64,000 nucleotides of DNA from Lepidodermella squamata (GCA_047495785.1 JBLDXI010000019.1:1-64000), one strand, 5' to 3'; positions 1 through 16,014 are shown, counted from the stretch's first letter. Numbers and translations: made by a program. The notes: generated from the letters alone by a model not told the origin.

Positions 1-1863
1 GGCCACCCAGCCTGCTTTCCAGAGAACCAATTTAATTTTTTGCTGCGAAAAACGTTCGGAGAGCTGGCATATGACACTGCAAAACGCGAGGAGCAGCTGA
101 GACAAAATAATTATAAACTGACAACGATTTATGCTTGCGAGTTCAAATCAATGTTAGCGCGCAATCAGGAGCTAGCTAAAGCACTGGAGGCAGCTGTTTC
201 CGTAATCCCGCCGATAAAGCCTCGATCAGCTTTGCTTGTGATAATTATTCAAAAATTACATTTTTAATCATAATTTTTTTTTTAATTGAAGGGCGGAAGG
301 TGTGAAGTACACCGCTGTTTCTTCGAGAAAGATGCCAATACTAGCTTGTTTTACGTTGATATAAACTCCATGTATCCATTTGTTCTGTGGTCGAAAGACT
401 TCCCGTGTCAAGATGTATCAATGCAAGTTTTAAGGTGGCGTTTGGATGATGCGAAATTGAGGGCAAAGTTTTTTGATACAACGGACCCAGCGTTTGGCCT
501 GATATCTTGCAAGATAGTACCAAACGCTGCTTTGATAATTCCCTGTCTCCCATGGAAATACGAAGATCGATTAGTATTTATCAGTTGTAGGACTTGCTAC
601 GTCGAGAAAAATTCAAAAACGAGATGCAATCATAATGATGAAGAGCGTGCTCTAACAGGTGTGTGGACTACTGAAGAGGTACGTATGGCTGTCGAGAAAT
701 TCGGGTATAGCCTTCAATCCGTTTTCGAAATATGGCACTACGAGTCCCGAGGAAATTTGAACTTTAAGGATTTTATAATATCGCTTCAAAAGCTCAAGTT
801 GGAACATACACAAATAGCCGCTAATCTTGACGTAGAGAAATATGTGTCTGATTGCCGAGCGAAGTATGGTATCGATTTAGACACGCAGGCTATGCTATCG
901 CCGAATCCTGCTATGAAGCAGATATCGAAGATCCTACAGAATAGGTAGATGGCGTTGTTTTTTAGCACTGGTCTTGGTCTTATATCCCTCGTAGCTTTTA
1001 CGGCAGATTTTGTCTCCGAAGCAATAATTCTACTGTGAAATATCTTGATTCGCCAGAGCAACTTATAGATCTGTTCGAAAGTCCAGGGAAAGTTGTTCAC
1101 ACCATACTGCCAGTTGGCCCTGATGACGAATCTCAACGAGTCCGCGTTTCATATTCCGATGCTCCAGATCACGAACAACCCTGTCCGAGCAATTCAGAGA
1201 TAATAGCCGCTTTCATAACGTCGTATGCAAGAATTTTGTTGTACGAAGAGGTTGAAGGAAGCTATTCGAAATCAATAATTTTTAAAGCTCTTTGCTTTCT
1301 AGATGGCTCGACTCGGTTCGAGGGTAGTCTATTGCGATAGTAAGCATTTTTTCAATTTCCGAGATTTTTTTCAAATTCAATTTTTTAAGCGGATTCCTTA
1401 ATTTACACGCATCAAGAGGGCGAGTATAAAATTCCAGAGGGACCCTTCATGGGTGAATTCAAATCGGAATTAAGCGATGGCGAAATCATTGAATCATGGG
1501 TTTGCATCTCGCCAAAGTCATACTCATTCGTAACTAATTTCAGGTATCGATGAAAAAATAATTTCACTGCGGATTTTTCGAGGCTTTGATATTTTCAGAT
1601 CTGAGCTCAAGTTCAAAGGAATAACTCAGAGCCTCGCAGGGAAAAAATTGTCACATGAATCTTTAGTCAAGCTGTTATTTGAATCATTGAGCGAATCTGC
1701 GCATCCATCTCTGACTCTTGATCAAACCAGATTCCACCGGCGGCACGTTCCGGCTTCAGTGACTCTTGAAACGCTTGAAAAAAGAATAGCGCCACATTTG
1801 AATGATAAACGAATATTTTGCCCTACATCCTTTACTTCAATACCTTACGGGTACCGGGTATAA
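1..1863 (+). CDS. Protein-primed family B DNA polymerase (pPolB), 5' end outside window; introns at 238-291, 945-994, 1251-1302, 1340-1389, 1544-1598
   Basis: Splicing five GT-AG introns of 50-55 nt gives one open frame of 533 aa with PRSALL^GGRCE, YVDINSMYP (motif A), KILQN^SFYGRF (motif B), YCD^TDS (motif C), ISPKSY, KFKGI and C-terminal SIPYGY. Bases 1-170 resemble the tail of the Vsr-like nuclease insert of Polinton pPolBs (GHPACF...T..RE..L...Y....IYACEF). Confidence 0.95.
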
Positions 1864-1895
1864 CTCTTTCATGCATTCTTCTTCTATTAGAAATT

Positions 1896-2348
1896 ATGTC
1901 AGACAGCATTTCACCGGATCGATTGGCTCCTGAGAGTGTAGCCTCTTACGAGTTTGTAAATTCTGAAGTTACCTGTTGCATTTGCCTTGGAATCATGCTT
2001 ACACCTGTACACATTTCCAACTGTCAACACGCATTCTGCGAAACCTGCATTTGTCGATGGGGCGATCGAGTTGAAGCTGGTAAAAAAGGTGGTTTGGTGG
2101 CGTATATGTACTCGAAGGCTACTTGCCCGAAATGCCGCCAATTATATACTTGCTTGGATCTCACCCCTGGGCCGGCTGTTGTAGATCGATTAGTCTCCCT
2201 TTTGCAGTTTAAATGCGTGAATGAAAAGCGCGGATGCTCAGTCAAAATGGACTATCTCAGTCTCATGGAGCATCAAAAGAAATGCAATAAACGGAAAGTA
2301 CCAAAATATACTGGAAATTTTAAATTTCTTCGTCAAAAAGCTGATTAG
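1896..2348 (+). CDS. RING-finger E3 ligase with a SIAH/TRAF-type zinc finger (RNF41/TRAF-like N-terminus)
   Basis: C3HC4 pattern CCIC...CQHAFCETC...CPKC, then C.NEKRGC...H..KC. ATG at 1896 follows an acceptor-like ttctattag. Confidence 0.88.
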   Translation: MSDSISPDRLAPESVASYEFVNSEVTCCICLGIMLTPVHISNCQHAFCETCICRWGDRVEAGKKGGLVAYMYSKATCPKCRQLYTCLDLTPGPAVVDRLVSLLQFKCVNEKRGCSVKMDYLSLMEHQKKCNKRKVPKYTGNFKFLRQKAD

Positions 2349-2454
2349 GGATTCAGCTTCCCAATTGAATCAAGTCTGAAATCCATCTGAAATAAATCCA
2401 TATGCACCTAAACAAAAATATGTTTGAATTTTAGGATCAAATTAACTAAAAAGA

Positions 2455-2792
2455 ATGAAAAGTTCGTACATTTTGGAGCTTAAACTGACGAATGGCAGTA
2501 CTTTCTACACGACTTTCGATGAATCATCGACACTTGCTGACATCATAGCACATCTACACGCTGCTTGGCCGCCAAAATGGGGCGACAAGCTTGACCTGGA
2601 TCAATTACAGCTCTACTGCAAAGATCGCGCAATCAGAAAGTCGGTGCTGCTCAAGTGTAAGTAAATTTCTACCTTTGAACCGAGCTTGATGATTTTCCAA
2701 TCCTAGCATTGAGTCGCCGCGAACTACATGGCTACAAGCATCGCACTTATTATGTCACTATTGTCTCAAAAAGCCCTCTTCCCGAGCTTTGA
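2455..2792 (+). CDS. UBL3/MUB-like ubiquitin-fold protein, copy 1 (intron 2657-2706, 95 aa)
   Basis: LKLTNG...TLADII.HL...WPPKWG....LQLYC..R; the spliced tail YVTIVSKSPLPEL resembles UBL3 HLVARETLPEP. Confidence 0.75.
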
Positions 2793-2864
2793 ACTTTCTG
2801 CTAATGTATAGTAAAGAAAAATACTATATTCGAGCTTGTTTTAAACTTAGATTTGTAACTTAAA

Positions 2865-3189
2865 ATGGAACCTCAGGCTTTTGAGGAATTTTCAGCTAAT
2901 GTCGCTTGGAGAAATGGAGATCAAATTAGCTTGCGATGCCATGCGTCAATAAAAGTAGACGCTATCCTACAGCAGATATATGACGAATGGCCAGATAGTT
3001 GGGGTGAGAAGCCGCATGTGAAAGAACTCCGACTATGTTACAACGGTAGATGCTTGCATAGGTTCTACAAACCAATAAGAAAGTATTTCCCAAGTATTTC
3101 CCAAGTGTAATTGTTTTTATCCAACAGAACTCTGCAACTATCTCCGAGTGAACGTTTTGGAGCTGACAGCTACAGCGCTTCATGTCTAA
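2865..3189 (+). CDS. UBL3/MUB-like protein, copy 2 (probable short intron ending at 3127; 3' end uncertain)
   Basis: ILQQIYDEWPDSWGEKPHVKELRLCYNGRCLH aligns by eye with UBL3 IAKHVYDNWPMDWEEEQVSSPNILRLIYQGRFLH. Confidence 0.75.
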
Positions 3190-3258
3190 TGATTTTCTGC
3201 TATGTATAAAAGATGGGTAAAAAAAGGGATCTTTTTAATTTTAGAAACATTTGAAAAA

Positions 3259-3516
3259 ATGACTAAATGGAATTTGAAAATTCGTATCGATAAGCGATTG
3301 AGTCCGAAATTAACTCTCAGAACGATTGGCGATCTTAAGGTAAATTCTCAATTGCGAATCCCGCTAATTATAAGAATTATACTCTGGCAGGTTTTGTTTA
3401 TACGCAATTGTCCATGCCAACCATGCGTGATTGTCTCTGGAACGACAAAAGCGAAGATCTTTCGTCTATCTGACATTGAGACCGCAATTTGCTTTTACAA
3501 ACAGCGTGAAAATTAA
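3259..3516 (+). CDS. Small hypothetical protein (about 68 aa after an in-frame intron at 3340-3390)
   Basis: ATG follows a tttag acceptor. AG|GTAAAT...GGCAG defines a 51-nt intron. Same strand and spacing as its neighbours; no recognisable domain. Confidence 0.5.
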   Translation: MTKWNLKIRIDKRLSPKLTLRTIGDLKVNSQLRIPLIIRIILWQVLFIRNCPCQPCVIVSGTTKAKIFRLSDIETAICFYKQREN

Positions 3517-3573
3517 GTCGTGAAAAAAGTGATTCAGGAATGGTTTTTTTATCTTAGGTTATAAAAATAATTG

Positions 3574-3924
3574 ATGGAAGCATCTCAAGATTGCGATTGG
3601 AGCAGCTGCGAATCCCTTGATTCTTGCAATTCTGTTGATTCTTCAACTCAAACTTTGCCTTATGAGCCGAACTCTTCAGCTCTTCTCCTCAGGTGGGTTA
3701 CTGGCGCTAAGGTCATCATAAAATGTCGAAAGTCGACTCAGATGCGCGAAATTTTGAATAAGCTGTGGGAAAAATGGCCCGATGGTTGGACAAGCCGGCC
3801 TTCGGACCCCAGAAAATTGAAAATTTACTACGGCCGGCTCAACATTCAAGACTTGACTAACGTCTACGAATTGAGCAAGGATCTTGACAAACGTCATTTG
3901 GTATTCAACGTACGCTGCGAGTAA
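3574..3924 (+). CDS. UBL3/MUB-like protein, copy 3
   Basis: LLLRWVTGAKVII.C...ILNKLWEKWPDGW...KLKIYYG...HLVFNVR; clearly paralogous to copies 4 and 5. Confidence 0.75.
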   Translation: MEASQDCDWSSCESLDSCNSVDSSTQTLPYEPNSSALLLRWVTGAKVIIKCRKSTQMREILNKLWEKWPDGWTSRPSDPRKLKIYYGRLNIQDLTNVYELSKDLDKRHLVFNVRCE

Positions 3925-4023
3925 TAGTTCATCACAATTCAAACAGTTGAAATCTGTATTAACCTGAATAATTGACGCAGTAAAATTAAATGGTTATGAT
4001 ATTCTTTTTTAGGCGAATTAATA

Positions 4024-4374
4024 ATGATATACTCGGCTGCGATTGAATCCCCTTCGATGAAACCTTCAATTCCAGTAATTAACCTCGTTCAGGATGACGT
4101 AGCTATCTTACTGAAGTGGGAGAATGGCAACAAAGTAATCATGCGTTGTCGACCATGGCTATCATGCGACTCCGTGTTAGCAGCGCTGGGGGCTGACTGG
4201 CCAAAAAATTGGGATAAAATTGGACCCACTGACAGATTGCATTTGCACTACAATAAACTTTGCCTTCCCCCTTTTGGTTATAAAGTCGGAGATTTTCTGA
4301 AAGATAGCAGACATCGCTTTGTAACGCTACATGTAAAATCATTTGAGCCCAAGATCAAGCGCATTTGTCCTTAG
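4024..4374 (+). CDS. UBL3/MUB-like protein, copy 4
   Basis: ILLKWENGNKVIMRC...ADWPKNW...LHLHYN...FVTLHVK. Confidence 0.75.
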   Translation: MIYSAAIESPSMKPSIPVINLVQDDVAILLKWENGNKVIMRCRPWLSCDSVLAALGADWPKNWDKIGPTDRLHLHYNKLCLPPFGYKVGDFLKDSRHRFVTLHVKSFEPKIKRICP

Positions 4375-4424
4375 TAAAGTGTTTAATTAACTCTGATTTT
4401 TCTAGTGCAGTTAACTAAAATCGC

Positions 4425-4766
4425 ATGGAAATAGCAAACGATATCTCTCAAACCCTAAGCAAGACGGAAGACTCGACAATTCCAGTAATTGACATAGTTC
4501 GGAACGATCTGACTGTCATTCTTAAGTGGGTTACTGGAGATAAAGTAATCATGCACTGTGAAGAGTTGGATTGTCCGTATGACATTATTCGCAAGTTAAT
4601 GGCGACCTGGCCAAAAAGATGGAAATTCGATAAATCGGCTGAACCTCATACATTATACTTATGCTACGGCGGTCTTAAGCTGCCAGGGTGGCACAGGATG
4701 AGGTTTTTTTTACCTGCTAATGATTCCAGCCGACGATATGTAACACTTGATGTCAAATATATGTAA
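4425..4766 (+). CDS. UBL3/MUB-like protein, copy 5
   Basis: VILKWVTGDKVIMHC...ATWPKRW...LYLCYGG...YVTLDVK; shares an IPVI.(L/I)V..D leader with copy 4. Confidence 0.75.
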   Translation: MEIANDISQTLSKTEDSTIPVIDIVRNDLTVILKWVTGDKVIMHCEELDCPYDIIRKLMATWPKRWKFDKSAEPHTLYLCYGGLKLPGWHRMRFFLPANDSSRRYVTLDVKYM

Positions 4767-4873
4767 TATTAATCGTTTGATTTTATCCGTTTATTCAACG
4801 CATAGGTAATAGGTATTCAATAAATATATCATATGTAATTTCGGGTAATTTTTTATTTTTTTAGGAAAATATT

Positions 4874-5790
4874 ATGATAGCTGACTTCTACAATTCTGGA
4901 TTGCCCCCGAATTTCGCGTGGAAAATAGTGAAATCATTGAAGGTTTGCTGACAAGTAGTCTGGACCTAAAACGCATTTTTTGTATTGTAGCCGTTCGACA
5001 ACTTGCGACCAAAATCTGTTCAGCGAGCATCAGGATTCAGGCGGTTGAAAGTGATGTGCATTTCCGACACGCACGACAGCGATTTTGTTTCAAAGGTGTC
5101 GAAAGCTCAAACATCGGCTCAAGCTGATATTTTGGTTCACGCGGGTGACATTACGACTTTCGGAAGTTCAGCAGAACTACGTCGATTTGATCGTCTGTTA
5201 TCAAGCGTCAAGCCAATGTTCCGAGAAGTAGTTGTTATCGCTGGAAATCACGATCGATGTTTGCAAAGCGGCGAATATGAGCTGAAAAATTGCATCTACT
5301 TGCAAGATGAGGCGATCAGAATCAGCGGTCTTCTGTTTTACGGCACGCCGTGGTAAGTTTCTTGAATCGTGTTTCTTGATTCAAGTTTCTTTCGCGAAGG
5401 ACACCGTGGACTGACAGTCGACATTCGGCTTTCACGCGTGCGAGAGGTCGAGAAATTAGCGCGAAATGGGAGATGATTCCCAGCGATACCGACATATTAG
5501 TTACTCATAGTCCCATGTTGGGTGTTCTGGATCAAACATCGAGTGGTGAGCGGATCGGCTGCCTTTCGCTCGCTGATCAAATTTTAACTCGCATTAACCC
5601 AAAGCTTCACATTTTTGGGCACGCTCATTTCAGTAATCATGTAACAAAAGAAAAATTGAATTCAACTTTTTCTTTTTATTAAGGTCGCGGAGAATTTGAA
5701 ACTGATAATACATTGTTTGTGAATGCAAGCCTGTGTGACGACGAGAACAAGTTACAGTTCAACCCGATATCTGTGGAGTTGCTCTACTAA
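4874..5790 (+). CDS. Calcineurin-like metallophosphoesterase, MPPED1/2 (239FB) type; introns 4943-4990, 5353-5399, 5633-5683; 256 aa
   Basis: The five metal-binding motifs are present: ISDTH, HAGD, AGNHD, THSP, FGHAH. Family motifs YLQDE, YGTPW, KW..IP..TDIL.TH and FVNAS appear after splicing. Confidence 0.92.
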
Positions 5791-6587
5791 CGATCTGGCT
5801 TTGGAATCCATGCTGCCCATCCGCCGCTTTGTCCGCGGGTTTTCGGAGGTGATGTCAACACTCGAGGATTCGTCGCCTTTATCGATCCCGCATCGACTAT
5901 TTTGTGTAGTCGTTCTGCTGAATCCGTTGTCAATGGAGCATTCGTATCCGTAATATTTTGTAGGAACTCTAACAACGGCCATGAATCAACTACCGTTCCC
6001 GAATTCGGACTTAACAGATTGATCGTTTTATTTGGTGAAATTACAACCCTCTTGGACCTATTGGGTCCTTTCAAATCACTAAGTATCTTAGTCACCAGCA
6101 ATCTCCGAGTTTTCGACTGGAAGCTATCAATGATTTCTTTAAAGTCCAAGGGTTTTTCAGGAGATACCTCCTCGCCCTGTTCTATTTTGGGAGAGCGAGT
6201 TGCTAACGGAGTTGTAGGTCGTTGCTTCACAGGGGATAAATTAGCTTCAGTCTCGCTTATCTCATTTTCATCCTCTAATGGATCATTAGATTTGGGTTCT
6301 GATTTTGTCTCTGCAATTTTTAATTCGCTTACAACGCGCTGAAACTCGCGGAAGGCAGAGTTGAATTTGTACAGCTTCCGACGAGCGTCTTCCTCTACAT
6401 TGTCGGAAGATGACAATGCAGTTAGCATTTGCATTGCGTTACGCTTCAGCAAGCCTTTCTGCGCAGGTTCAGATGCTTCCTTGATTAATCGTTTACTCTC
6501 TGTCTCAACGGTATTCTTTGCGTCGTCATGCTTTAGCGCTCCTGGAACAAGGGCATAACGCTTTGCAAACTGGCCGAATCCACTCAT
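5787..6587 (-). CDS. Polinton protein of unknown function (probably virion-associated)
   Basis: Last gene of the virion operon. N-terminal KRYALVP resembles the K.M.LVP start I recall from Polinton ORFs at this position; C-terminal QSGG motif. Confidence 0.6.
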   Translation of the reverse strand: MSGFGQFAKRYALVPGALKHDDAKNTVETESKRLIKEASEPAQKGLLKRNAMQMLTALSSSDNVEEDARRKLYKFNSAFREFQRVVSELKIAETKSEPKSNDPLEDENEISETEANLSPVKQRPTTPLATRSPKIEQGEEVSPEKPLDFKEIIDSFQSKTRRLLVTKILSDLKGPNRSKRVVISPNKTINLLSPNSGTVVDSWPLLEFLQNITDTNAPLTTDSAERLHKIVDAGSIKATNPRVLTSPPKTRGQSGGWAAWIPKPDR

Positions 6588-6666
6588 TTTCGTGTGGCTT
6601 TGACAATTGCTTCGACCACTGTGGGAAGTATTCCTAAAATTGGTCTCATTTATCAATTTTTTTTAA

Positions 6667-6999
6667 TTAAAAAATAAGCAAACCAGCTACGGCTGACAAT
6701 AGCGGTACTACAAAAGCTGCCCCGCCTTTCTGAACTATGTACTGACGATTACTGCTAACAGTTCGCTCGCTTTCACCTAATTTTCTGATAGATTTACTAA
6801 ATCTTCGCAGCTTTTTCGCTAATCTCGGCGAAATCTGAAGGTTCTTGTTGAGGAGATTGAGGCAAACTTCGCTTATAATTCTGATGACCGTATCCGGAGC
6901 AATAGATAACAACTGCCTACGCCGATCAATAGATTTTGCTCGAACTATTTCTCTTATAAAACCCAAAACGCGCTGCGATTTATCGTATGACTTGCGCAT
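6667..6999 (-). CDS. Basic Polinton core protein with an adenovirus pX-like C-terminus
   Basis: ISEVCLNLL..N......KKL......IRKL...QKGG followed by a hydrophobic helix AAFVVPLLSAVAGLLIF, like the pX tail GGFLPALIPIIAAAI. Confidence 0.75.
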   Translation of the reverse strand: MRKSYDKSQRVLGFIREIVRAKSIDRRRQLLSIAPDTVIRIISEVCLNLLNKNLQISPRLAKKLRRFSKSIRKLGESERTVSSNRQYIVQKGGAAFVVPLLSAVAGLLIF

Positions 7000-7055
7000 A
7001 TCTTTAGACCATTATAAATGTGAACAAACACCTCATTTATATATACATTTTATTA

Positions 7056-7799
7056 TTATTTCGGTACATAAATTACACCAGGGAAAGCGCCCACCCCAGT
7101 TCTATAGCGCATAAACTCCGGACAATCAGGACTGAGGTCGATAAGTAAGTAACGATGTCCGCCTTTGCTTGTTTCCATTTCGAAACTCTCCACTACGAAC
7201 CGCCAGCGCAGCGGTTCCAATTGCAGGGCGAGATAGCGGAACGATGTGAGATCTGCACGATGCCGAAAAATGAATAAATATTTAGCATTCAGCGTCATTT
7301 CTTTGGACATTTTTCCTTTGCAGAATATTGCTTGCTGAGTAAAAAATACAGATAACTTCAAATGATGAGAGTATCGATAAAATAATTGAAGAATTTTCGG
7401 ATCGTTTCTTCCTGTATCATACAAGTCATCTATCACTAACAATGTATAAGTATCATCTCCACTGCTTGATTGGAATTCTTCAAAGTTTAGTTGCTCTAGA
7501 CCTTTGCGAAACTCAACAGTAAGACCACGGCTTTTTTCTACTTCATCCTTTATTTGCTGATGCATCCCGGTCTCAACCCCGTAAAACCATAACACTCGAT
7601 GCGGCGCTGGTGATATGGATTCCGGGTCGTTAAGAATTCGTCGAATAAGCCATGTTTTGCCTAATATACATAGGATGAAATGAGATAATATTTATGAATC
7701 GCACAACTAACCTGCGCCGCTAGGACCTATAACGAGCGAGCAGAAAGGGGCTTGCAAGCTAAGCGATACATCTATTTCTGATGGCAAATCGCCAGACAT
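7056..7799 (-). CDS. Genome-packaging ATPase (A32/FtsK-like); intron 7661-7711; 230 aa
   Basis: The spliced protein has Walker A VIGPSGAG^KT, Walker B LLVIDDL, YSHH..SVFFTQQ, LNAKYL.IF and YLLIDL. Its ATG (7799) lies inside the 3' end of the protease gene. Confidence 0.93.
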
Positions 7800-8338
7800 G
7801 ACTGGTGACCGCTACAGGTACCGAAATGACGGGACATTTTCTCAGATTTGCTAACTTTAAATATTCGATTCACCTGATCAACTATGAAATTATCCGTATT
7901 TTTATCAGGAAGCATTTGCGCAATCTTATCCATAGATGCTCCCCTCGCGAACCAGTGAAGCGTTAAATATGCGTAGTAGCCACAAACCGCCGTTGAATCG
8001 CTCTGATATTTATGCTTGTTATAAATGTAATTATTTTTCGAGTTGATGTTCGTTAAAAATGCTTCTATAGCCTTGTTATAGAAGTTCCCGCGCCGACCAT
8101 AGCTATCAAAGAATAAAGCCGGCTCGTTTGTTTGTGGGACATAAATTGACAGCCAATGACTTCCCGGCTGACCAGCGGCGTCTGTATTTACAATTAGAGC
8201 CATGGGACGCTCGCTCATCCCCTGATATCGTGATAGATAATCCCATGGTATAGTCTTTTTAACTGGAATTTTATTGAGATTTCTATCACAGCCAAGTAGA
8301 CAGTCCAACTGGAGGGTATTTAGTTGACCTCCGTTCAT
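7772..8338 (-). CDS. Adenain-like cysteine protease (capsid maturation)
   Basis: IVNTD....PGSHW (His), FFDSYG (Asp) and YQS..TAVCGYY (Gln/Cys) catalytic motifs. Confidence 0.93.
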   Translation of the reverse strand: MNGGQLNTLQLDCLLGCDRNLNKIPVKKTIPWDYLSRYQGMSERPMALIVNTDAAGQPGSHWLSIYVPQTNEPALFFDSYGRRGNFYNKAIEAFLTNINSKNNYIYNKHKYQSDSTAVCGYYAYLTLHWFARGASMDKIAQMLPDKNTDNFIVDQVNRIFKVSKSEKMSRHFGTCSGHQSCLAICHQK

Positions 8339-8343
8339 GCTAT

Positions 8344-9633
8344 TCACGTAAAGTCGACCAGGACGTTTCGTGCAAAATTCAGCTCGATAACTTGATCCGT
8401 CTCAAAGTAACAGAGAAGTATCAGGTTATCGGCTAATGCTTTTTTAAATAATAAATCAATAGAAAGCACGCCACTTTTAACCAGACTGTATGCACTACGA
8501 CTTGAGTCGGGTGAGAGATCGAATCCTATAAAGGAAAAGCCGTCCTTGCTGTATTCTGATAGCTTTATACCATTTGTTTTAGTCGAGTAAGGAAACAGCG
8601 TCTCCCTAAGAGCACTCATAGCCCGAGCCGATGTATTTTCGCCCTCTCCAAATTCGAGCGGGCTGTTTGGGACATGCTCGCTATCTATTGTGACAGACAC
8701 GCGCTGAACGCCAGCGTTTTTAAAGTTGTAAGGACTGGTGAAGATGTCGCCTTTGAAATCACTATCGCTAACGAAAGACATCACCAGTCGTCTGGGTATT
8801 TTCCCTAGTATAACGTGCCCAAGGTTGTAGTTAAGAGATCCCTTTTGCAAATTCAAGACTTTAATGAACGATCTGTTCACACCATACTTGGCCGTGGTTT
8901 TTGTTAGTGTTCGATTCAGCGCCAACGTAAATTGCGGAGATACGCGAACGCGACGCAATTTGAGCTTAGCATCAGTAACTGTTAGTGTATAGTCCATCTT
9001 GTCCCCGGCAGGTTTCATCAGAGCAAACGCCTCAGGTGCGCGTATGAAAGTCAACTTGAAGGGCGTAGCCGGAATCAGAAATTTCGGCTGAGAGAATAGC
9101 TCTAAATGTGGCTTGCCTATAAGAACCATCTCGCCTTGCTTTGCCCAAGCAAGTCTGGCGGTATGACCCTTGCCAGCAGGATCGCTGACTTTACCAGCTT
9201 CGTCTGAATAATAGCCTTGCAATGCCAAGTAGCTATCCTTAGCTGTCGGATCACAACTCAGTAAAGTTGAAATATAAGCCTTATAATTATATGTCGGAGC
9301 CGGTTCGCTGATTTGCGTATTATTTATGCTCATATCTATTTGACTGAACATACTATGCAACAGAAGGTTAACCGGCGAGCAAGTAAGGTCAGCTAAAGTC
9401 TTTGACGCGTCGCCATTCACTATTTTACATGTTATTTCCACGTATGAACGGCTCAAATCTGTCCAATCATTGCTTGGAGGGATGTCAAAATCAATGCGTG
9501 ACTGATTGGCGATCGCGGAAACTGGTCCATATTCTGTAATGTAATTGCTCTCTATCTCAACTTGAGTAGGGTTCAACGAAAAGACATTCAGCTCAGCGCG
9601 AATTGCGTTTTCAGAAGAGGGGTGGACGTACAT
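8344..9633 (-). CDS. Major capsid protein (double jelly-roll, hexon-like)
   Basis: 429 aa, intronless. EL.VF...PTQ..I, TDLSRSY, PVNLLLHSMFSQID, YNYKAYI.TLL, LFSQPKFL, G.IPRRL, SPYNFKN and F.GFDLSPD are typical Polinton MCP motifs. Confidence 0.93.
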   Translation of the reverse strand: MYVHPSSENAIRAELNVFSLNPTQVEIESNYITEYGPVSAIANQSRIDFDIPPSNDWTDLSRSYVEITCKIVNGDASKTLADLTCSPVNLLLHSMFSQIDMSINNTQISEPAPTYNYKAYISTLLSCDPTAKDSYLALQGYYSDEAGKVSDPAGKGHTARLAWAKQGEMVLIGKPHLELFSQPKFLIPATPFKLTFIRAPEAFALMKPAGDKMDYTLTVTDAKLKLRRVRVSPQFTLALNRTLTKTTAKYGVNRSFIKVLNLQKGSLNYNLGHVILGKIPRRLVMSFVSDSDFKGDIFTSPYNFKNAGVQRVSVTIDSEHVPNSPLEFGEGENTSARAMSALRETLFPYSTKTNGIKLSEYSKDGFSFIGFDLSPDSSRSAYSLVKSGVLSIDLLFKKALADNLILLCYFETDQVIELNFARNVLVDFT

Positions 9634-9684
9634 GGCAGTGAGATGATTATTTAATCTCGGTTTTAACTCCTTTAAATAGGGTTT

Positions 9685-10147
9685 TCAGAAGGAAACGCGT
9701 TTTGTGCTCCTCTTTTTTTTCGTTGGCATTTTTTGTTTGGCTACGTACCGACGACGACGACGCCGACCAGTTCCGATTTGCGAGCCTACTCTAGATATTA
9801 CATCTTTTGCAACTCCCTTTAACCCTTCCACTGCACGTTGTTTCAAAATCGCTCTGGGATTGGCATCTTTGTTTTCAAGAAGATCCGTTGCAATGTTGGC
9901 TGTTGTATGACTCAAATTCCGAAATATCGGTCCAAGTAAGGGAATGATATGATTGCGAAAAAACCCAGCAGCTACGCTCCCGAACCCGTTTCCTGTCTAT
10001 ACTAACACATTTTACACATTTTCACCGATTGTTACCGATTATTTTTACCTGGTATGAAGGAAAAACGATAGACTGTCCGCGAAATGGCTCTATCCCATAT
10101 CCACTTTGTTGCAACAAAAAAGACTCGTAAGCATCGGCTGAATACAT
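9685..10147 (-). CDS. Polinton core protein with an Arg/Lys-rich tail; intron 9997-10048; 136 aa
   Basis: Spliced: MYSADAYESFLLQQSGYGIEPFRGQSIVFPSYQ^TGNGFGSVAAGFFRNHIIPLLGP...QIGTGRRRRRR...KKKRSTKR. This matches the Q.G.G...F.G...Q.G.GFG..F pattern of the ORF between the capsid genes. Confidence 0.8.
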
Positions 10148-10248
10148 GTTTTATTTAGCTTTGTGTACAGTTTAAATCGAACCTAACTAATCCATTGTCT
10201 TTTTTTACAGCTGAGCTTTCCAACTTTTTCTAAAAACGGATGAATGGC

Positions 10249-11939
10249 TCATAAATAAATAAATAAATAAATAGCAATAGGTCTAATCTGAACTAATATA
10301 ACAGCCTTACCACTAACGAATTTTACAGGTAATCCAGAGTCTTTATATATTTGAATCTCAATAACAGACAAAACGCGACGTTTAATTGGGACAAATATGG
10401 GTTTTTCAAAAGTTTTCGAAAAAAAGCTTCCTTTGTCTATCGTTTTTTCCGTCGGAATTACTCGCAACAGGGGTGTGCGGGTATTTCCGACATACACGTC
10501 ATCAATTACGTCAGCGTACAAGAATAAGAAGGGCATTCCGTAATCAAGCTGGGGTGGAAATCTTGCGATCGCTTGATCGTCAACATGATGGATTGTGTAG
10601 AAATATTCTATTATCGATACAGGTTGCTCTTCGTGACTTGGCGGGTTTTGGTCATTTTGCGGACCAGATGGCTGAATTTCGACCGATGGGCTAGGAGCAC
10701 TTGATGACCGCTCTTTCACCGCTGTGCCGCTCTGATCTGACTGATCCATCGATGACTCGTCTGGCTCACTTTCATGCTGGTCTAGATCAACATTATCGTC
10801 AGGATTCTGATGTGTTGTCTCGTCAGGTAACAAATCTTTCTTTGCTGGATCCGTCGCTTTGTCTGACTCATTCTTCACAACTTCATCGTCACCAACCGCA
10901 GGGTCAGCCGGTTGATTATCATCTGGCTTCGCGGTCACTTGTTCATCTGGCTCAGCAGTCACTTGTTCATCTGGCTTCGCAGTCACTTGGTCTTCCGTTG
11001 ACTCGCCAGGCTTCTTATTATCACCCGATGGAATTGGCGGAAGCTTTCGCTTTCGTTGCGGTGGGTTACTGTCATTCGATACCTTTTTATCATTCGGATC
11101 TTGCCTATTCTCAGCTTCCGTCTCATCCTCTTTATCGACCTTTTTCACATCATCGTCAGCTGGGGGTGGCAACTCTGCATCTTCATCGGATCTTCGAGAT
11201 CTAACTTTACCGGGTACTCTTTCCGGTAAAAATAGCCCACCTTTGAATCTAACTTTGTTGAATTCATTCACATCTGCTGATATGGAACGGTATGGTATTC
11301 TCTGCCTACTTCCAGTAACGACATAGCCAAGCATTAGCCTGAACGCTGCGCCCATTTTAACCACGTCATTTGAAAACCCTTCGTCCTTTCTATCGAATTT
11401 GTGGAATGCAACAAAGGCACCAGGGTACCCTAAAACTTGCGCGAGTTCCTTAGGTATAAATATTCCCCATTTACCAATGGCGACCTTCAGTGACACGCGA
11501 TTTGTGATTTGCACGTACTCAAATGTAATATTCTTCGTTATGCTCTGAACTTCCTTCTCCATGTGAGTAAGCAATTCTTCTATGTTGGAGTAATATACTC
11601 CTCCGACCTGGCATTCATGCAGATTTTTCGTGTCAAATGGATCCGGAGCTTTGTATGCATCAGGTTGTTCCAACCATTCGCAATCAAAAACGTAAAAATT
11701 TGTCGGTTCTATCGACTCCCAAGCTGATGGACCGTTAAATTCCACGAGACCCATTTCCCATTGACCTAAATTTTTTTTTAGTGCGGGCTATAAGTGACTT
11801 TCATTTTTATCATACCCACTGTGCCAAGATCAATATCGTTGGCCAACTTGACGCGAAATGACGACGCTGTGTTGTCAGGAAACAGATCGTTGGATGCGTT
11901 CGATGGTAAGTAAAGTAAAAATTCTTGCCGCGCGCTCAT
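10249..11939 (-). CDS. Minor capsid protein (penton) with a long acidic/Pro-rich insertion; intron 11766-11815; 546 aa
   Basis: Exon 1 FLLYLPSNASNDLFPDNTASSFRVKLANDIDL^GQWEMGLVE and the C-terminal LFLYADVI....VGN..TPLLRVIP...P.FVP......IEIQI..D.G.PV.F..GK are classic penton ends. Confidence 0.9.
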
Positions 11940-12169
11940 GTCGTCGTGTTATTAGCAATGCGATGAAATAGCCGATCCCTCCAAGACCAGTAGATTTCAA
12001 TAGAAAAATATGTGGCGCAGAGAGCTAACAGCGATATTATTCCGAGACCTTTTTTTCTCCTACTAACTGCAGCTGCTAGCCTACTGCTAACACTGCTGTG
12101 CGGCGAACTACTTTTACTTGCTCTTTCGTGTGATTCTTCAGGTGCCTGAGGAGACTCTGTTCCACACAT
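11936..12169 (-). CDS. Small single-TM protein (77 aa)
   Basis: RRKK is followed by hydrophobic GLGIISLLALCATYFSIEIYW. Its stop overlaps the penton start (ATGA) and its start abuts the upstream stop. Confidence 0.55.
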   Translation of the reverse strand: MCGTESPQAPEESHERASKSSSPHSSVSSRLAAAVSRRKKGLGIISLLALCATYFSIEIYWSWRDRLFHRIANNTTT

Positions 12170-12250
12170 TTATCGGCGATGCACGCGTTTGTTACCGCGT
12201 TTGCGTGCTGTGGATTTTCGTTTCCGGATAGCTCGTCTAGGACCAGGCAT
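12170..12250 (-). CDS. 26-aa protamine-like basic peptide MPGPRRAIRKRKSTARKRGNKRVHRR
   Basis: Exactly fills the gap between the integrase stop (TAATG overlap) and the next ATG. TATATAAA lies 34 nt upstream. Too short for the ORF track. Confidence 0.6.
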   Translation of the reverse strand: MPGPRRAIRKRKSTARKRGNKRVHRR

Positions 12251-13497
12251 TACTTTCCCCTCTTTTTGGCCGATTTTCGCTCCTTTATATATTCATTTTG
12301 GACGTCTTTTATTTGGTCAATTGGCTCCCATGAACTTTGAGATTTGGGAAACCCAACCCAGCTAACTAAAACCCGCGTTGTTCCATCCTTGAATTTTCGC
12401 TTCTCTTTACTCACTTCATCTATCAGGTATTCATCCGGTAATTTGACTTTTTGAAGCTCATAGTGATAAAAAACGCCTGCAACAGGTTCGGTGTAGTCGC
12501 CGTTTTCTGTGCTCCATCCATTCAACTTGTATGTATGCGGCCCGTACCTGTCTGGCTTGATGGCTTTCGCTATTTTGAAATACTCATCCGTATAAGTAAA
12601 ATGACGAGCGCGGGCAAAAACGCCTCTCTCTGCTGAGATCCGTACTACATCGTCTAATTTAAAAGCTGATGGCTGCCTGCGACCTTCTTCTATGTCCGCT
12701 CCGAAAACGTTATTGTAAGCTATATACTGCTTAGGGCTGTCCTCGAAAATATCGAGATTAAGCTCCTTGTCACTCCCGATTTTACGCCCACTCTCCTTGT
12801 CATTGTACAACTCTGCGGGTGTGAACTTGGTAGATGAGTGACGGGAGTCATTGTAAACTCTAACGATGTTCTGCAAATCATCGACGAATCTACCGTCGTT
12901 TCGCGCCATCGCAAGCTTAGCCAGTCGCATGCGCAGTAATTTGTTGAATGACTCTATTTGAGGAACTTTCTTTTCCGAATTCGTAGCGAAAAAATGAATG
13001 GATTCTGATTTCAAATATCGCTCAACGTGTTGGTTGAAAAATTCTGAACCTCTATCGAACACAACAGCGTACGGTTTTTGCTTAGCGTCCTTCATAACTA
13101 TTTTCAGAGCTCTAAGTGTTTCGGGACCGGTTTTATTTCGCATCGTTTGCACCCAGGCGAAACGACTGTATGTGTCCTTGGCTGTAAGTATATATTGCAC
13201 GTTGTCGTTCTCGCCCTTTACATTTCTCACGTCCACCAAGTCCATAGCGAACAAACTTCTTCGACTAAAGCATGCCACCTTCCGGGTTACTCGATTCCTC
13301 GTTCCGACCTGCTTATAAACGCTCCACGTACGTTGATTTCCCAACCAGTTCCTTACTTGCCGCATTGTGATCTTTCGACCTGGATACTTGACCCTGTAGG
13401 CTTTGTAAAGAGCTGATACGCTACCGAGACCGCCTGGTTCACCCGGGTCGAAGTAAATTTTTCGCAAATCTCGGTCATCTTGATCTAACGTTGGCAT
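12250..13497 (-). CDS. Retroviral-type (rve) DDE integrase with a C-terminal chromodomain
   Basis: IYFDP..PGGLGS..LY, AMDLVD (D), VFDRGSEF (D), IESFNKLL (E), YN...HSST..TP, FK..D.VRIS and chromodomain YLIDEV...VLVSWVGFP...SSWEP. Confidence 0.95.
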   Translation of the reverse strand: MPTLDQDDRDLRKIYFDPGEPGGLGSVSALYKAYRVKYPGRKITMRQVRNWLGNQRTWSVYKQVGTRNRVTRKVACFSRRSLFAMDLVDVRNVKGENDNVQYILTAKDTYSRFAWVQTMRNKTGPETLRALKIVMKDAKQKPYAVVFDRGSEFFNQHVERYLKSESIHFFATNSEKKVPQIESFNKLLRMRLAKLAMARNDGRFVDDLQNIVRVYNDSRHSSTKFTPAELYNDKESGRKIGSDKELNLDIFEDSPKQYIAYNNVFGADIEEGRRQPSAFKLDDVVRISAERGVFARARHFTYTDEYFKIAKAIKPDRYGPHTYKLNGWSTENGDYTEPVAGVFYHYELQKVKLPDEYLIDEVSKEKRKFKDGTTRVLVSWVGFPKSQSSWEPIDQIKDVQNEYIKERKSAKKRGK

Positions 13498-13552
13498 TTT
13501 CGTTGTATATTCCAACTCTAGCGTTTTGCGTTTTAAATAGTGACATTCTGTA

Positions 13553-14467
13553 ATGGAAAAGTATTCTTACATCCGAGCTATTGGCTCAGGTTCTTTCGGC
13601 ACTGTCAGTTTACAGCGCAACATTCCCCTAAATCGAATGTTTGCAGTGAAAATGATAGATACTACGATCCCCTACAAACTCGAGTCTGCCACTCGGGAAA
13701 TTGAGTGCCTGCAAATACTAAAATCTGCGCCAAACGTTATTAGGTAGGCGACTGATATTGTTTTGACCACCGAATTACTTAAATCGTATAGACTGCATGA
13801 GGTTGTGTTCACCACTCGACGTGCATTTCTTGTGCTGGAATGTCACCTCATGGATATGAAATCCTTGATTGGAGTGATAACTCGACCCTGGCCACTTGTT
13901 CTACTAACCCGATGGTTAAACCAGCTTTTGACTGCTCTTGCATATATTCACGCTTGTGGAATAATTCATCGCGACATTTGCCCGCAGGTTTGTCAGTTTT
14001 TGTCTTTCAGCCAAGTTTTCAACACCTAATTACAGAATGTACTCCTGCAAACCAGCTGGGTCGATGTATCCCTCGCTGATTTCGGCATTTCGCGAACACT
14101 GCCCGACGACACCTGCCCAGATATGACCCCGGAAGTTACGGCGTTTCACTACCGAGCGATCGAAATAGTATTCCCTAAACCTCGATATACGAATAAAATT
14201 GATGTTTGGTCCCTAGCTGCTACAACTATTGAACTTGTTACACTTGCACCGTTTTTCTCCGCTCAATCTACTGTCAACATATTCAATAACATAAAATCTA
14301 AAACTTCCAGTCTTGATGATTTCTTTAGGTGTTTGAACACATTCGTTCACTGCGATTTCACCGAGTACAGGCAATTGCTTGAGCTACTGTTCTCAATGCT
14401 CAATAACAATCCTGAATCTCGTCCATCAGCAGATCAATCTCTAATTCTGCTCAATGCAATCTTATGA
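13553..14467 (+). CDS. CDK-like (CMGC) Ser/Thr protein kinase; introns 13744-13791 and 13988-14035; 272 aa
   Basis: GSGSFG, AVK, SATREIECL (PSTAIRE-like helix), HRDICPQ^N, ADFG, MTPEVTAFHYRAIE, IDVWS, NPESRPSA. Confidence 0.9.
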
Positions 14468-15101
14468 TATCAACATTTCGGTTTCCAACATTGTCGCAAC
14501 CTTCAACGTTGGAACTCCCATAGATCTACATCTCCTTGCTCAGCGTGGGGTTAATACGTTCTTCGATAGCAGGCAAATACCCGTATCAGTAAAGATCCGA
14601 TTCCCCAGTCACATTTCAGCAATGGTTTACTCATCAGGCCATGTTATAGTCATTGGAGGAAAAGGGTCGAAGGACACTGCGGATTTTGAATGCAAAGCCT
14701 TGGTCATCTTACACAAGCTACGGAATTGGATGTCAATTCCTTCTCTAATCTTCGATCGGTTTAATATTAGAAACATTGTCATAACAGGACAGCTACCTTT
14801 TCGATTTTTGCAAATTTCAACACTGTATTCGGAATTTTCATCGGTGAAAATGCCAGGATTCAAAATTGTTTACATACCTGAAATGTTCTGCGCTATGAGA
14901 CTTACCATCAATAATGTGAAAATTAGCTTTTTCCCAAGCTCTCATAAGTTTAATGTTGTCGGCGTTAAAACATTAGATCATGGGCTGAATATTGTTCGTA
15001 CTTTTGTCCAGCTCTGCATTGATATTCACGAAAAAGAGTTGACTGATTTGGGGTTAACCGAGCTAGATTTACTGTTCCTGAATTCCTGTTTCAATAATTA
15101 A
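14454..15101 (+). CDS. Divergent TATA-binding-protein family factor (TBP/TRF2-like)
   Basis: Two TBP repeats: ISVSNIVATFNVG.PIDL..LA.RG.N...AMVYSSGHVIVIG and FNIRNIV.TG.LPF...Y.PE.F.A......IS.F.S.K..VVG.K. Confidence 0.85.
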   Translation: MQSYDINISVSNIVATFNVGTPIDLHLLAQRGVNTFFDSRQIPVSVKIRFPSHISAMVYSSGHVIVIGGKGSKDTADFECKALVILHKLRNWMSIPSLIFDRFNIRNIVITGQLPFRFLQISTLYSEFSSVKMPGFKIVYIPEMFCAMRLTINNVKISFFPSSHKFNVVGVKTLDHGLNIVRTFVQLCIDIHEKELTDLGLTELDLLFLNSCFNN

Positions 15102-15135
15102 AAATTTATTATTCTTAGACAAGATTTATTGAGTC

Positions 15136-15747
15136 ATGGCATTGTCCGCACCAGGTGTTGAGCTGACTGTTTTCAATATAAATCCGCAACTGAACCTCGG
15201 AATCGATAATATGCCCAATGGACACTATCTTCGCAATCAGCAGGTGGAAAAATTACGAGCTGTGAAATCTCACTTTCTAAGGACAATGCACGGCTCTGTT
15301 GTTGTTGACATTGTATCTGGAAAATCCGGCGTTTGCGTCCTCCTACCTTACGTGCTCAAATCTAGCAGAGTTTTGGTGATTACGCCTTCTCAAGACATTA
15401 CACGACAACTAGCATGGGATTTTACCGGAAATTTGAAACCTGAAACAGCCTTCCTGTTTCGCGCAGGCGTTTACACCTTCTGGAAGACATGGCCGACCAT
15501 CATACCTAAATGTTGCATTTTCGATCACTCTTACAATTTTAATCAGGATTTCAACCCACCACCTCTCTTCATCACCAACAGCTTTGATTTGAACCTTATC
15601 CCTCTAAATCTTTTCGATTTAGTAACCGTTGTTAACGCACAAGATTTTCTACTTTCATCTTTGAAGCTCATCGCGGAACGTTTTAAAAAGGTCAAAGTAG
15701 TGTTCCTTGCAGACCGTAAGATTGCCGATTTCAACGTTATTATGTAA
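15136..15747 (+). CDS. Stand-alone, apparently inactive SF2 helicase N-terminal domain (ResIII/DEAD-like)
   Basis: Q motif LRNQQ, degenerate Walker A SGKSG and motif Ia RVLVITPS..IT.QL. The Walker B position reads FDLVTVVNAQ instead of FDLVIVDEAH. Confidence 0.7.
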   Translation: MALSAPGVELTVFNINPQLNLGIDNMPNGHYLRNQQVEKLRAVKSHFLRTMHGSVVVDIVSGKSGVCVLLPYVLKSSRVLVITPSQDITRQLAWDFTGNLKPETAFLFRAGVYTFWKTWPTIIPKCCIFDHSYNFNQDFNPPPLFITNSFDLNLIPLNLFDLVTVVNAQDFLLSSLKLIAERFKKVKVVFLADRKIADFNVIM

Positions 15748-16014
15748 CACTAGACTTGGGTGTCAGGTACTGGTTTCAGGTTCTTTTCTATTAATCCATG
15801 TTGTTAGCCCCATTAATGTCCATGTTCGATGATCCATTGATCAATAAAAATGAGATTCCGTAACGTGTTTTTTTGCTCGAGCGTCAAATAGGTGACTACC
15901 AGACATTCTAGATTTTTTGTTCTGAGATAGATTTCATAAAGTACCATAAAGTACCAAAAATTTGAGTCCTAATTTATTATTTAAAATTAACTTTTGACGT
16001 TGTTTCTTTTTAAG

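Follow-up and report, generated by a model that had tools for sequence, protein, structure and literature searches.

In three sources (PMC8097293, 10.1101/2022.07.12.499685 and PMC4028283), the core genes of Polinton/Maverick elements are described as intronless, and intron-bearing cargo genes, kinases included, are known from nematode Mavericks. Full-length Polinton-type elements with intron-forming sequences are represented by dinoflagellate polinton-like proviruses, whose introners are, according to PMC12166617, repeated, transposon-like, mostly acquired after integration and located in coding regions in about 25% of cases. Among DNA viruses of other realms and sizes with protist hosts, mirusviruses (PMC12768974) and a punuivirus GEVE (10.64898/2026.10.09.758095) carry spliceosomal GT-AG introns, described as a ratchet that binds them to the nucleus. 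Introns of mirusviruses are most often close to 80 nt long, with endonucleases encoded in some of them, and the punuivirus has a two-part plan in which host-like genes bear introns and virion genes have viral promoters.

The element described here lies at the start of the window, by which we mean the whole analysed stretch of 64,000 nucleotides from Lepidodermella squamata (GCA_047495785.1 JBLDXI010000019.1:1-64000). It resembles the animal Polintons and adintoviruses, as characterized in these sources, in its pPolB, rve integrase, protease, A32-type ATPase and double jelly-roll major capsid protein (MCP), in a penton gene lying one gene from that of MCP (the position rule given in PMC4028283), and in its host-like cargo genes. 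It differs from those descriptions in having eight putative introns in the pPolB, ATPase, core and penton genes, and a cargo cassette with an acceptor ahead of every ORF. No fusogen was seen in the element. In contrast to the dinoflagellate introners, its introns are mutually unrelated, frame-critical and placed in intact core genes, and unlike the mirusviruses and the punuivirus it is an animal element of ~20 kb with empty introns of ~50 nt. The genes are as follows.

1..1863 (+), pPolB; PF03175 at 1e-13 on exon 2; 151 homologs align over the junctions
1896..2348 (+), RING/Sina-like zinc-finger ORF, whose ATG lies 5 nt downstream of a T-rich acceptor
2455..4766 (+), cassette of five ubiquitin-like paralogs (2455, 2865, 3574, 4024 and 4425) and ORF 3259
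4874..5790 (+), MPPED2-like metallophosphoesterase (MPPED), four exons; PF00149; acceptor 9 nt upstream of the ATG
5787..6587 (-), 266-aa ORF; no match among the locus ORFs or in PHROGs
6667..6996 (-), small conserved Polinton ORF with a QKGG motif; 28 homologs in related loci; TATATAAA at 7043
7056..7799 (-), A32/IVa2-type packaging ATPase, two exons; 26 homologs; TATTTAAA at 7863
7772..8338 (-), cysteine protease resembling that of adenoviruses, uninterrupted; TATTTAAA at 8450
8344..9633 (-), double jelly-roll MCP, uninterrupted; TATTTAAA at 9678
9685..10147 (-), basic protein, two exons, provisionally labelled core-like following the original prediction; 71 homologs in related loci
10249..11939 (-), two-exon gene of the penton (minor capsid protein); 66 homologs
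11936..12250 (-), two small overlapping ORFs, one of 26 aa and arginine-rich, one of 77 aa with a hydrophobic stretch and no Pfam match; TATATAAA at 12291
12250..13497 (-), uninterrupted rve integrase carrying a chromodomain; TATTTAAA at 13539
13553..14467 (+), three-exon CDK-like kinase lying head to head with the integrase; CDK2 matches
14454..15101 (+), TBP-like protein overlapping the kinase stop; PF00352 at 4e-14; TBP structures at 2e-8
15136..15747 (+), 204-aa ORF, weak ResIII (helicase N-terminal) match; acceptor-like site ~16 nt upstream

The gene content is that of a Polinton/Maverick. Motifs A, B and C of pPolB align with those of the 151 homologs, and the integrase (PF00665 at 7e-8, with the PF00385 chromodomain) has 50 matches in related loci. 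MCP was recognized by a fold search (pLDDT 84; Foldseek matches to the mavirus MCP at 3e-16 and to PBCV-1 and Sputnik) and the penton by homologs and position. The packaging ATPase was accompanied by the protease, whose Peptidase_C5 match (E = 0.001) lay just under the cut-off, and two ubiquitin-like copies matched Rad60-SLD_2, their cassette containing the repeats D2 and D3. Animal genes come next in the same window, and the 204-aa ORF probably adjoins the right end of the element. No long inverted repeats were found in 1-30000, the left end being beyond the window; ACTACT and AGTAGT were absent from 15701-21000, and none of the listed contigs spans the break near 15990-16030. A contig of the source run extends ~3 kb past position 1, the 5' part of pPolB lying outside the window. 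Because a contig of run X1 matches 1-10159 save one base, the sequence is no assembly artefact. Point stops and frameshifts were absent from all element genes within 1-15,750, unlike in many of the 80 metagenomic relatives.

The 15 GT-AG segments of 47-55 nt that the original prediction placed in these genes are all present; they are listed here with their exact coordinates, together with a possible 16th.

238..291 (+), pPolB intron 1, 54 nt, phase 0, in-frame stop; directly ahead of the GGR motif
945..994 (+), pPolB intron 2, 50 nt, phase 2; interrupts motif B (KxxxNS)
1251..1302 (+), pPolB intron 3, 52 nt, phase 0; in the helix upstream of motif C
1340..1389 (+), pPolB intron 4, 50 nt, phase 1; splits motif C (YxDTDS)
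1544..1598 (+), pPolB intron 5, 55 nt, phase 2; ahead of KxKG, frame requires removal
2657..2706 (+), candidate intron of ubiquitin-like copy 1, 50 nt, phase 1; donor equal to the consensus
3340..3390 (+), candidate intron of ORF 3259, 51 nt, phase 0
4943..4990 (+), MPPED intron 1, 48 nt, phase 0, in-frame stop
5353..5399 (+), MPPED intron 2, 47 nt, phase 2
5633..5683 (+), MPPED intron 3, 51 nt, phase 1, in-frame stop
6683-6634 (-), possible 16th intron, 50 nt, at the 3' end of the small Polinton ORF starting at 6996
7711-7661 (-), ATPase intron, 51 nt, phase 1, in-frame stop; splits Walker A
10048-9997 (-), core-protein intron, 52 nt, phase 0; frame requires removal
11815-11766 (-), penton intron, 50 nt, phase 1
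13744..13791 (+), kinase intron 1, 48 nt, phase 2, in-frame stop
13988..14035 (+), kinase intron 2, 48 nt, phase 0, in-frame stop

With X placed at the junctions, no exon contains a stop, and the segments are richer in A+T than the exons (0.69 vs 0.56). The claim that each removal restores the frame is loose: eight segments shift the frame, six have lengths in multiples of three and an in-frame stop, and that of ORF 3259 is in frame and stop-free in an ORF without a homolog. Homologs fixed 11 of the 15 junctions, mostly without a gap, including all eight in core viral genes (five in pPolB and one each in ATPase, core and penton). Of the other four, MPPED introns 1 and 3 take out in-frame stops, and those of ubiquitin-like copy 1 and ORF 3259 stay candidates. 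The chance of GT..AG at a given start and length in the element is 0.0025-0.0034, and the joint chance for the nine best-fixed junctions, taking 25 slide positions per junction, is ~2e-10, or ~5e-6 with one codon of slack also allowed. The GT-AG ends of all 15, a T-rich 3' end, and the homologous frame obtained on removal, with 11 junctions fixed by homology, are the features of U2-type introns.

Of the homologs spanning pPolB intron 1, 124 of 133 had no difference in length; at intron 2 the figure was 125 of 132. Zero difference was the modal class at introns 3 (62/115) and 4 (59/113), the motif being aligned at the latter, and the mode was +1 at intron 5 (42/108), where 6 nt are common to the exon end and the intron end. 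The ATPase junction was gap-free in 21 of 21 spanning homologs. At the penton junction, all 50 spanning homologs differed by at most 1-2 residues; the same protein holds an open in-frame insertion of ~280 aa. Motifs aligned on either side of the core junction, near which the window protein has five more residues than 62 of 65 homologs. Homologs could be aligned across motif B, motif C and Walker A, all three of which had been predicted to contain introns, and MCP, protease and integrase, predicted to be intron-free, are single stop-free ORFs aligned to relatives over residues 3-428 of 429, 6-161 of 188 and 1-390 of 415, respectively. The proposed check of gapless alignment to intronless homologs thus succeeded at most of the 11 fixed junctions but gave no homology gain for ubiquitin-like copy 1 (22.0 vs 21.8 bits; 125 of 500 shuffles matched the exon 2 score). 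The possible 16th intron gave near-equal scores in the homology test (51.3 vs 50.4 bits).

On the sequence evidence, the segments in core viral genes can very likely be read as introns of the spliceosomal type. By the frames and the homologs, the spliceosome would therefore be required to express pPolB, ATPase, core and penton, as had been proposed. Our main reading, with a probability of roughly 0.8, is that the element is an integrated Polinton/Maverick whose polymerase, ATPase, core and penton introns are very likely removed by the major spliceosome of the host.

The original prediction treated the introns as one class, but two can be told apart: the eight in viral core genes must be gains, and the five of MPPED and the kinase may have been inherited with captured host genes. 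The latter idea is based on presumed exon boundaries of MPPED2 and CDK2, on which a literature search gave nothing usable. On MPPED2 (PDB 3rl3-5), exon 2 extends to residue 180 and exon 3 starts from 181, and exon 4 searched alone gave no PDB match. At the site of MPPED intron 1, a diverged 145-nt contig of run X1 has a canonical donor; this was the sole sister-copy junction compared. The kinase pieces cover contiguous Pkinase nodes (1-62, 62-126 and 127-257). In the kinase, cysteine replaces the catalytic-loop lysine of CDK2.

The donors and acceptors of the element are similar to those that host introns use in this window, down to the weak donors and the AAG acceptors; several element donors are weak (GTGA, GTTG and GTTT). 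As predicted, host introns read by eye were mostly 49-65 nt (eight of ten; one is 385 nt, and a doubtful one of 39 nt was dropped), tblastn support among them being limited to three AHCY introns. The element introns are shorter than the short host introns (median 50 vs 58.5 nt; p = 0.005; n = 15 vs 8), and "host-type" is therefore only approximate. Intron-like splits were seen in none of 26 ATPase, 60 penton, 80 MCP and 6 pPolB relatives and in one doubtful case among 70 core relatives. Introners were rejected within the window because the best intron pair scored 23, equal to the shuffled median (23; 95% point, 28), and the mutually unrelated introns argue against a recent burst of one introner. 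Group I/II self-splicing introns were also rejected, the segments being only 47-55 nt rather than hundreds with a conserved fold or ORF. Folding of six introns gave z values of -1.6 to +1.5 for five and -2.4 for candidate 16.

The original prediction also offered a control switch, in which intron retention blocks replication or packaging, or an escape from silencing. We consider such a role unlikely, even though it may coexist with our main reading. Three of the eight core introns split catalytic motifs (B, C and Walker A), and the mean conservation percentile at the eight core junctions is 0.68 (p about 0.04, a value inflated by the penton insertion). The termini of public pPolB proteins pile up at the same motifs B and C, hinting that many such intron-bearing elements may exist. 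The splicing of P-element transposase, regulated between soma and germline, provides a precedent, and in the punuivirus latency genes are reported to be marked by introns (10.64898/2026.10.09.758095). However, any retained intron kills the protein, so the location in a motif adds nothing; three of the eight core introns lie at ordinary positions, and both early and virion genes bear introns. Exon ends are AG in nine of 16 cases, and proto-splice contexts could account for the hot spots. The motif enrichment is weak, and no result supports a switch or silencing avoidance.

Less probable still is that the introns are real but were gained after the copy had become immobile, as a domesticated or dormant provirus kept by the host, and mark its assimilation. 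The contig depth over the element (160-190, which does not equal copy number) is no higher than that of the right flank and gives no sign of high copy. Introns of endogenous giant viruses are taken as decay or assimilation in PMC12768974, and the mostly post-integration introners (PMC12166617) point in the same direction. In contrast, eight unrelated core-gene gains without a stop or frameshift imply long purifying selection on the replication and virion set, diverged sister elements occur in the same run, one sharing the pPolB-MPPED-ORF6587 order, and the public pPolB proteins end at the same motifs. A decayed element in which the segments arose by chance insertion or through errors of assembly is very improbable: Genewise "introns" in vertebrate Mavericks are taken as degrading insertions in PMC8097293 and the AHCY gene of the window has a 1-nt frameshift, suggesting that the assembly may contain errors, but the GT-AG ends and narrow length range have a chance of about 5e-6 or less, decay in the relatives takes another form, with point stops and shifts of 1 nt (MCP is split 23 times in 80 loci), and the independent contig agrees over 1-10159 but for one base.

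In adenovirus transcription units, as in the operons that nematodes, flatworms and tunicates resolve by spliced-leader (SL) trans-splicing, several ORFs share one unit and each is headed by a 3' splice site. Several ORFs of the element likewise have a predicted 3' splice site of their own. A T-rich acceptor 5-20 nt upstream of the ATG, a rule defined after inspecting these ORFs, was found in all eight plus-strand cargo ORFs compared with 47 of 278 AT-matched ATGs (17%). In the ubiquitin-like cassette and ORF 3259, a T-rich TAG acceptor lies 11-20 nt upstream of each ATG, and most cassette ORFs have an AATAAA-like hexamer 45-64 nt upstream. Upstream GT donors for the cargo ATGs showed no excess over chance, two ATGs having none, and the predicted 3' splice sites near the ATGs are unpaired, as in SL trans-spliced operons. 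The plus-strand cargo is likely arranged as in such an operon; since such acceptor sites precede the ATG in a few of the window's host genes too, the cargo acceptors could instead belong to 5'-UTR introns. A loose literature search on adenovirus transcription units and spliced-leader operons gave no mention of Polintons among the matches listed. The TATA boxes (TATTTAAA or TATATAAA) number seven on the minus strand of 1-17000 and one on the plus strand; the TATA-like box of MCP is not special, because 36 of 64 relatives have one.

These observations suggest a scheme in which host RNA polymerase II would transcribe the element in the nucleus, and DNA-to-DNA copying without reverse transcription would leave introns unpurged. 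Introns gained in a working ancestor would then persist as a ratchet, limited genome space keeping them short. The plus-strand unit (pPolB, RING, the five ubiquitin-like genes, ORF 3259 and MPPED) is likely one polycistronic transcript, which would be cut at the acceptor upstream of each ATG by spliced-leader trans-splicing or shared-leader splicing. The virion module is likely driven by TATA promoters, possibly aided by the TBP-like protein of the element. The introns are most likely tolerated passengers tying the element to splicing-competent hosts, a designed switch not being favoured.

The expectation that ORF-based scans would miscall the element agrees with the ATPase, whose unspliced exon 2 matches no Pfam ATPase family, whereas 10 of 11 intronless relatives match Pox_A32 and 10 of 11 match Adeno_IVa2. 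Screens in the literature either set a minimum of 900 aa for pPolB ORFs or relied on gene callers made for prokaryotes. We tentatively propose, as an idea that may well prove wrong, a widespread and overlooked class of working intron-bearing animal polintoviruses with repeated gains at the same polymerase motifs, within which the present lineage would express its early genes as an operon trans-spliced to the SL of the host and its virion genes from TATA promoters served by its own TBP-like factor. If this is true, the host range of this lineage would be confined to animals with tiny-intron splicing and trans-splicing. The finding matters because the literature presents these elements as free of introns, and a standard gene finder would take such copies for dead.

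Most of a Polinton/Maverick occupies positions 1 to about 15,750 of the window. The main features are listed here with coordinates where they are discussed.

Plus strand, opening of the window: protein-primed polymerase (pPolB, PF03175), within which the window begins
Plus strand, after the polymerase: RING protein, five ubiquitin-like paralogs (UBL), an unknown ORF (ORF3259) and an MPPED2-like phosphoesterase (MPPED)
Minus strand: two small ORFs, packaging ATPase, protease, major capsid protein (MCP), basic core-like protein, penton and integrase
Plus strand, head to head with the integrase: CDK-like kinase and TBP-like gene
15998-17507, on the right-hand side of the element: ankyrin-repeat gene (several variant contigs; cargo or host alike possible) and a secreted, collagen-like ORF that contains 63-nt repeats
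Rest of the window: Cys-loop channels, BTB-BACK genes, trypsin and AHCY
30467-45159, plus strand: four Cys-loop ligand-gated ion channel genes in tandem, apparently without introns, and a fragment; a non-LTR reverse transcriptase ORF (33157-34452) lies among them
61345-61348, minus strand: 1-nt frameshift in host AHCY relative to a homolog of 89% identity (a slip in the assembly, or a pseudogene); the gene also has one GC-AG intron at 62100-62050

The genes in the rest of the window show that the host is an animal. An AHCY search narrowed this no further than 'animal-like': its best unnamed matches reached 81-89% identity, and the named ones, mostly from vertebrates, 74-79%. A search for the element's ends within the window sequence did not find them; a single contig of sequencing run X1, which is probably the source of the window, spans 1-10159 with one base different and extends ~3 kb further left. 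A diverged contig of the same run matches pPolB, MPPED and ORF6587 (a 266-aa minus-strand ORF) in identical order, in pieces at 37-89, 1139-1234, 5046-5070 and 6316-6377, and on this gene order is a sister element carrying the same cargo. The predicted fold of MCP is a double jelly-roll (pLDDT 84), with structure matches to mavirus MCP (3e-16), PBCV-1 and Sputnik; a scan of the MCP alignment against viral contigs found no relative, and 50 loci with identities of 21-32% emerged from the pPolB scan. PDB searches returned nothing useful for kinase exon 1 (E 1e-4), MPPED exon 4, ATPase exon 2 or the MCP profile. The PHROGs search with seven proteins and the Atlas search with ORF3259 gave no match, and the Atlas search with UBL4 gave only ubiquitin-like leads, all below 0.9. 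A 'pPolB1' type for the polymerase was dropped; exon 1 looks VSR-like by its likeness to homologs, one of them annotated VSR, and VSR is assigned to a pPolB2 subgroup by Jeong et al.

The penton holds an insertion of ~280 aa (10630-11470, minus strand), largely acidic and proline-rich with 24-nt repeats and absent from 66 homologs; it is read as coding, as it stays open in frame, and possibly forms a spike or loop. Ahead of the penton on the same strand lie a 26-aa arginine-rich, protamine-like ORF (12170-12250) and a 77-aa ORF that includes a hydrophobic stretch (11936-12169); the two are coupled, the stop codon of one overlapping the start codon of the other. At the position of the CDK2 catalytic-loop Lys, the CDK-like kinase carries Cys (13960-13990, plus strand), and on this substitution it may be impaired or a decoy.

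The original prediction placed 15 GT-AG segments of 47-55 nt in the element's genes: five in pPolB, three in MPPED, two in the kinase, and one each in UBL1, ORF3259, the ATPase, the core protein and the penton. Each gene was read through with an X placed at the junctions, and coordinates were fixed for all 15 segments. All are present with GT-AG borders at these lengths, and every exon is free of stops. The further claim that each removal restores the frame is loosely put: it fits the eight segments that shift the frame, whereas six others carry an in-frame stop and that in ORF3259 has neither effect. MCP, protease and integrase are uninterrupted ORFs, as had been predicted.

A gapless fit of the spliced proteins to intronless homologs had also been expected. 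In an alignment of 151 pPolB homologs, the length difference was zero at junction 1 in 124 of the 133 spanning homologs and at junction 2 in 125 of 132, and zero was the modal difference at junctions 3 and 4 (62/115 and 59/113); junction 5 lies in a variable loop with a mode of +1 (42/108). Comparison with the best 80 of 510 metagenomic loci, from 33 of 64 parts scanned, placed the ATPase junction without a gap in 21/21 spanning homologs and the penton junction within 1-2 residues in 50/50. The core protein aligns on either side of its junction, yet exceeds 62 of 65 homologs by 5 residues in length. Among the cargo genes, the boundary between MPPED exons 2 and 3 falls at MPPED2 residues 180/181, and the kinase's three pieces correspond to Pkinase nodes 1-62, 62-126 and 127-257. 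Excision of MPPED introns 1 and 3 takes out in-frame stops, and a diverged 145-nt contig has a canonical donor at the position of MPPED intron 1. Removal of the UBL1 and ORF3259 segments brought no gain in homology support. Judged from these alignments, 11 of the 15 junctions are fixed by homologs. At a given start and length, GT..AG pairs arise by chance at a rate of 0.0025-0.0034, which the observed fit far exceeds; our own arithmetic gives about 5e-6 for nine junctions with generous slack.

Two further segments were considered. An intron in UBL2 at 3083-3127 was dropped, its removal giving 43.7 versus 44.3 bits. A candidate sixteenth intron (6634-6683, minus strand) folds into a hairpin (z -2.4), and the spliced ORF would stop on a codon overlapping the next ATG. 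MPPED intron 3 contains a near-perfect AT-rich inverted repeat (5646-5677, plus strand) that is not significant against shuffles (z -1.6).

The frames and homolog fit uphold the core of the original prediction, host-type introns in core viral genes, and suggest, with a probability of roughly 0.8, an intact Polinton whose core genes carry spliceosomal introns. The segments resemble the window's host introns in donors and acceptors, including weak donors and AAG ends, but are shorter (median 50 versus 58.5, p = 0.005, against host introns chosen by eye with one doubtful case excluded), so that 'host-type' holds only approximately. The segments are not copies of one another, which argues against introners, and are far too short to be self-splicing introns. 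Motif B, motif C and Walker A are each split by one of the eight core introns, but taken over all eight the enrichment in conserved columns is weak (p about 0.04). An added regulatory role for the introns on top of this reading, whether as a switch or as a way round silencing, seems unlikely. Less probable still is domestication after integration, in which the introns would have been gained once the element had inserted. Decay without any introns is a very improbable source of the segments, since the splits in the 80 related loci are point stops and 1-4-nt shifts (23 in MCP alone), whereas the element shows the reverse, with zero point lesions and ~50-nt GT-AG segments as its sole interruptions. 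Intron-like splits were found in 0/26 ATPases, 0/60 pentons, 0/80 MCPs and 0/6 polymerases of these relatives, with one doubtful case among 70 genes for the core protein, in a scan that would miss in-frame, stop-free introns.

Public pPolB proteins offer a lead to similar introns elsewhere. Sixty homolog alignments end between HMM nodes 321-539; motif B accounts for 12 of these ends and motif C for 9, against 1.6 expected per motif, an overstated excess as conserved motifs attract alignment ends. Of the 102 proteins that show the motif C pattern, five continue D-T-G with K, E or I and end within 29 residues, as would follow from a GT donor in the codon after it; of the 91 that show the motif B pattern, three run N-R and then stop, like the window's own unspliced frame. 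In a FastTree tree of 152 sequences, the early-ending proteins, among them those of a mealybug and two spiders, are scattered and lie apart from the window's protein, whose own neighbours are supported at no more than 0.84. They may reflect recurrent intron gain at proto-splice sites or ancient introns held in common.

In the accessible parts of the sources, the ORFs of intact vertebrate Mavericks are intronless (PMC8097293) and nematode Mavericks have introns in cargo only, with intronless core genes (10.1101/2022.07.12.499685), whereas the present element has eight in its core genes; endogenous polinton-like viruses are likewise said to 'not contain introns' (PMC10120064). Precedents are dinoflagellate elements that carry introners (PMC12166617), cryptophyte PLVs with group I introns (PMC12220804), intron-rich mirusviruses (PMC12768974) and an intron-bearing punuivirus (10.64898/2026.10.09.758095). 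Term searches within PMC8502044, PMC6431247 and PMC4028283 revealed no spliceosomal intron in Polinton genes, and the literature search, at the level of listings and passages of openly available papers, found none described for core genes of intact animal Polintons.

The plus-strand cargo also carries a distinct upstream signal. Between 1877 and 4864, 8/8 cargo ATGs are preceded at 5-20 nt by a T-rich TAG, by a rule drawn up after inspection; of the AT-matched ATGs across the window, 47 of 278 fit it. In most cases an AATAAA-like hexamer also precedes the cargo ATG, at 45-64 nt. At 41-71 nt ahead of these ATGs, GT donors are not above chance and are absent for two, so the acceptors look unpaired. 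Only ORF 15136 among ten other starts passes the same test, and about 5 of 13 inspected host genes carry a similar acceptor. A different signal precedes the integrase and virion genes, in seven copies:

7043, 7863, 8450, 9678, 10349, 12291 and 13539, minus strand: TATTTAAA or TATATAAA boxes

A comparable box before MCP is frequent among the relatives too (36/64). The element itself encodes a TBP-like protein (14454-15101, plus strand); Starrett et al. include a TBP label for non-animal MELD viruses in the legend of a figure. From these upstream signals we infer that the early unit may be operon-like, resolved via trans-splicing or a shared leader, with late genes TATA-driven.

Introns of human MPPED2 and CDK2 probably sit at the places of the second and third MPPED introns and of the first kinase intron, which would mean that these cargo genes were captured as genomic host genes. 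Transcripts would be made by nuclear RNA polymerase II and spliced by the major spliceosome. An element that copies itself from DNA to DNA never passes through reverse transcription and so has no step at which to shed introns; gains would accumulate as a ratchet, an argument also made for mirusviruses (PMC12768974). At somewhat less than even odds, the element may represent a class of widespread intron-bearing polintoviruses with a trans-spliced early operon.

Surveys lean on long ORFs or prokaryotic gene callers, assuming that Polintons and polinton-like viruses are intron-free; one demands pPolB ORFs of at least 900 aa (10.1101/2023.08.22.554363), a threshold against which the longest pPolB exon in the window measures only 653 nt. 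By itself, ATPase exon 2 is not recognized as a member of any ATPase family, in contrast to 10 of 11 relatives. ORF-based scans would therefore miscall the element, as foreseen, and an intact element with eight core-gene introns means that such surveys can misscore working elements, mistaking them for fossils and undercounting capsid-competent ones. The element is a compact case of intron gain in genes with intronless ancestors and shows where new introns land. If the cargo acceptors are trans-splice sites, it would be a virus-like element fitted to its host's RNA-processing dialect, which would form a barrier to horizontal transfer.
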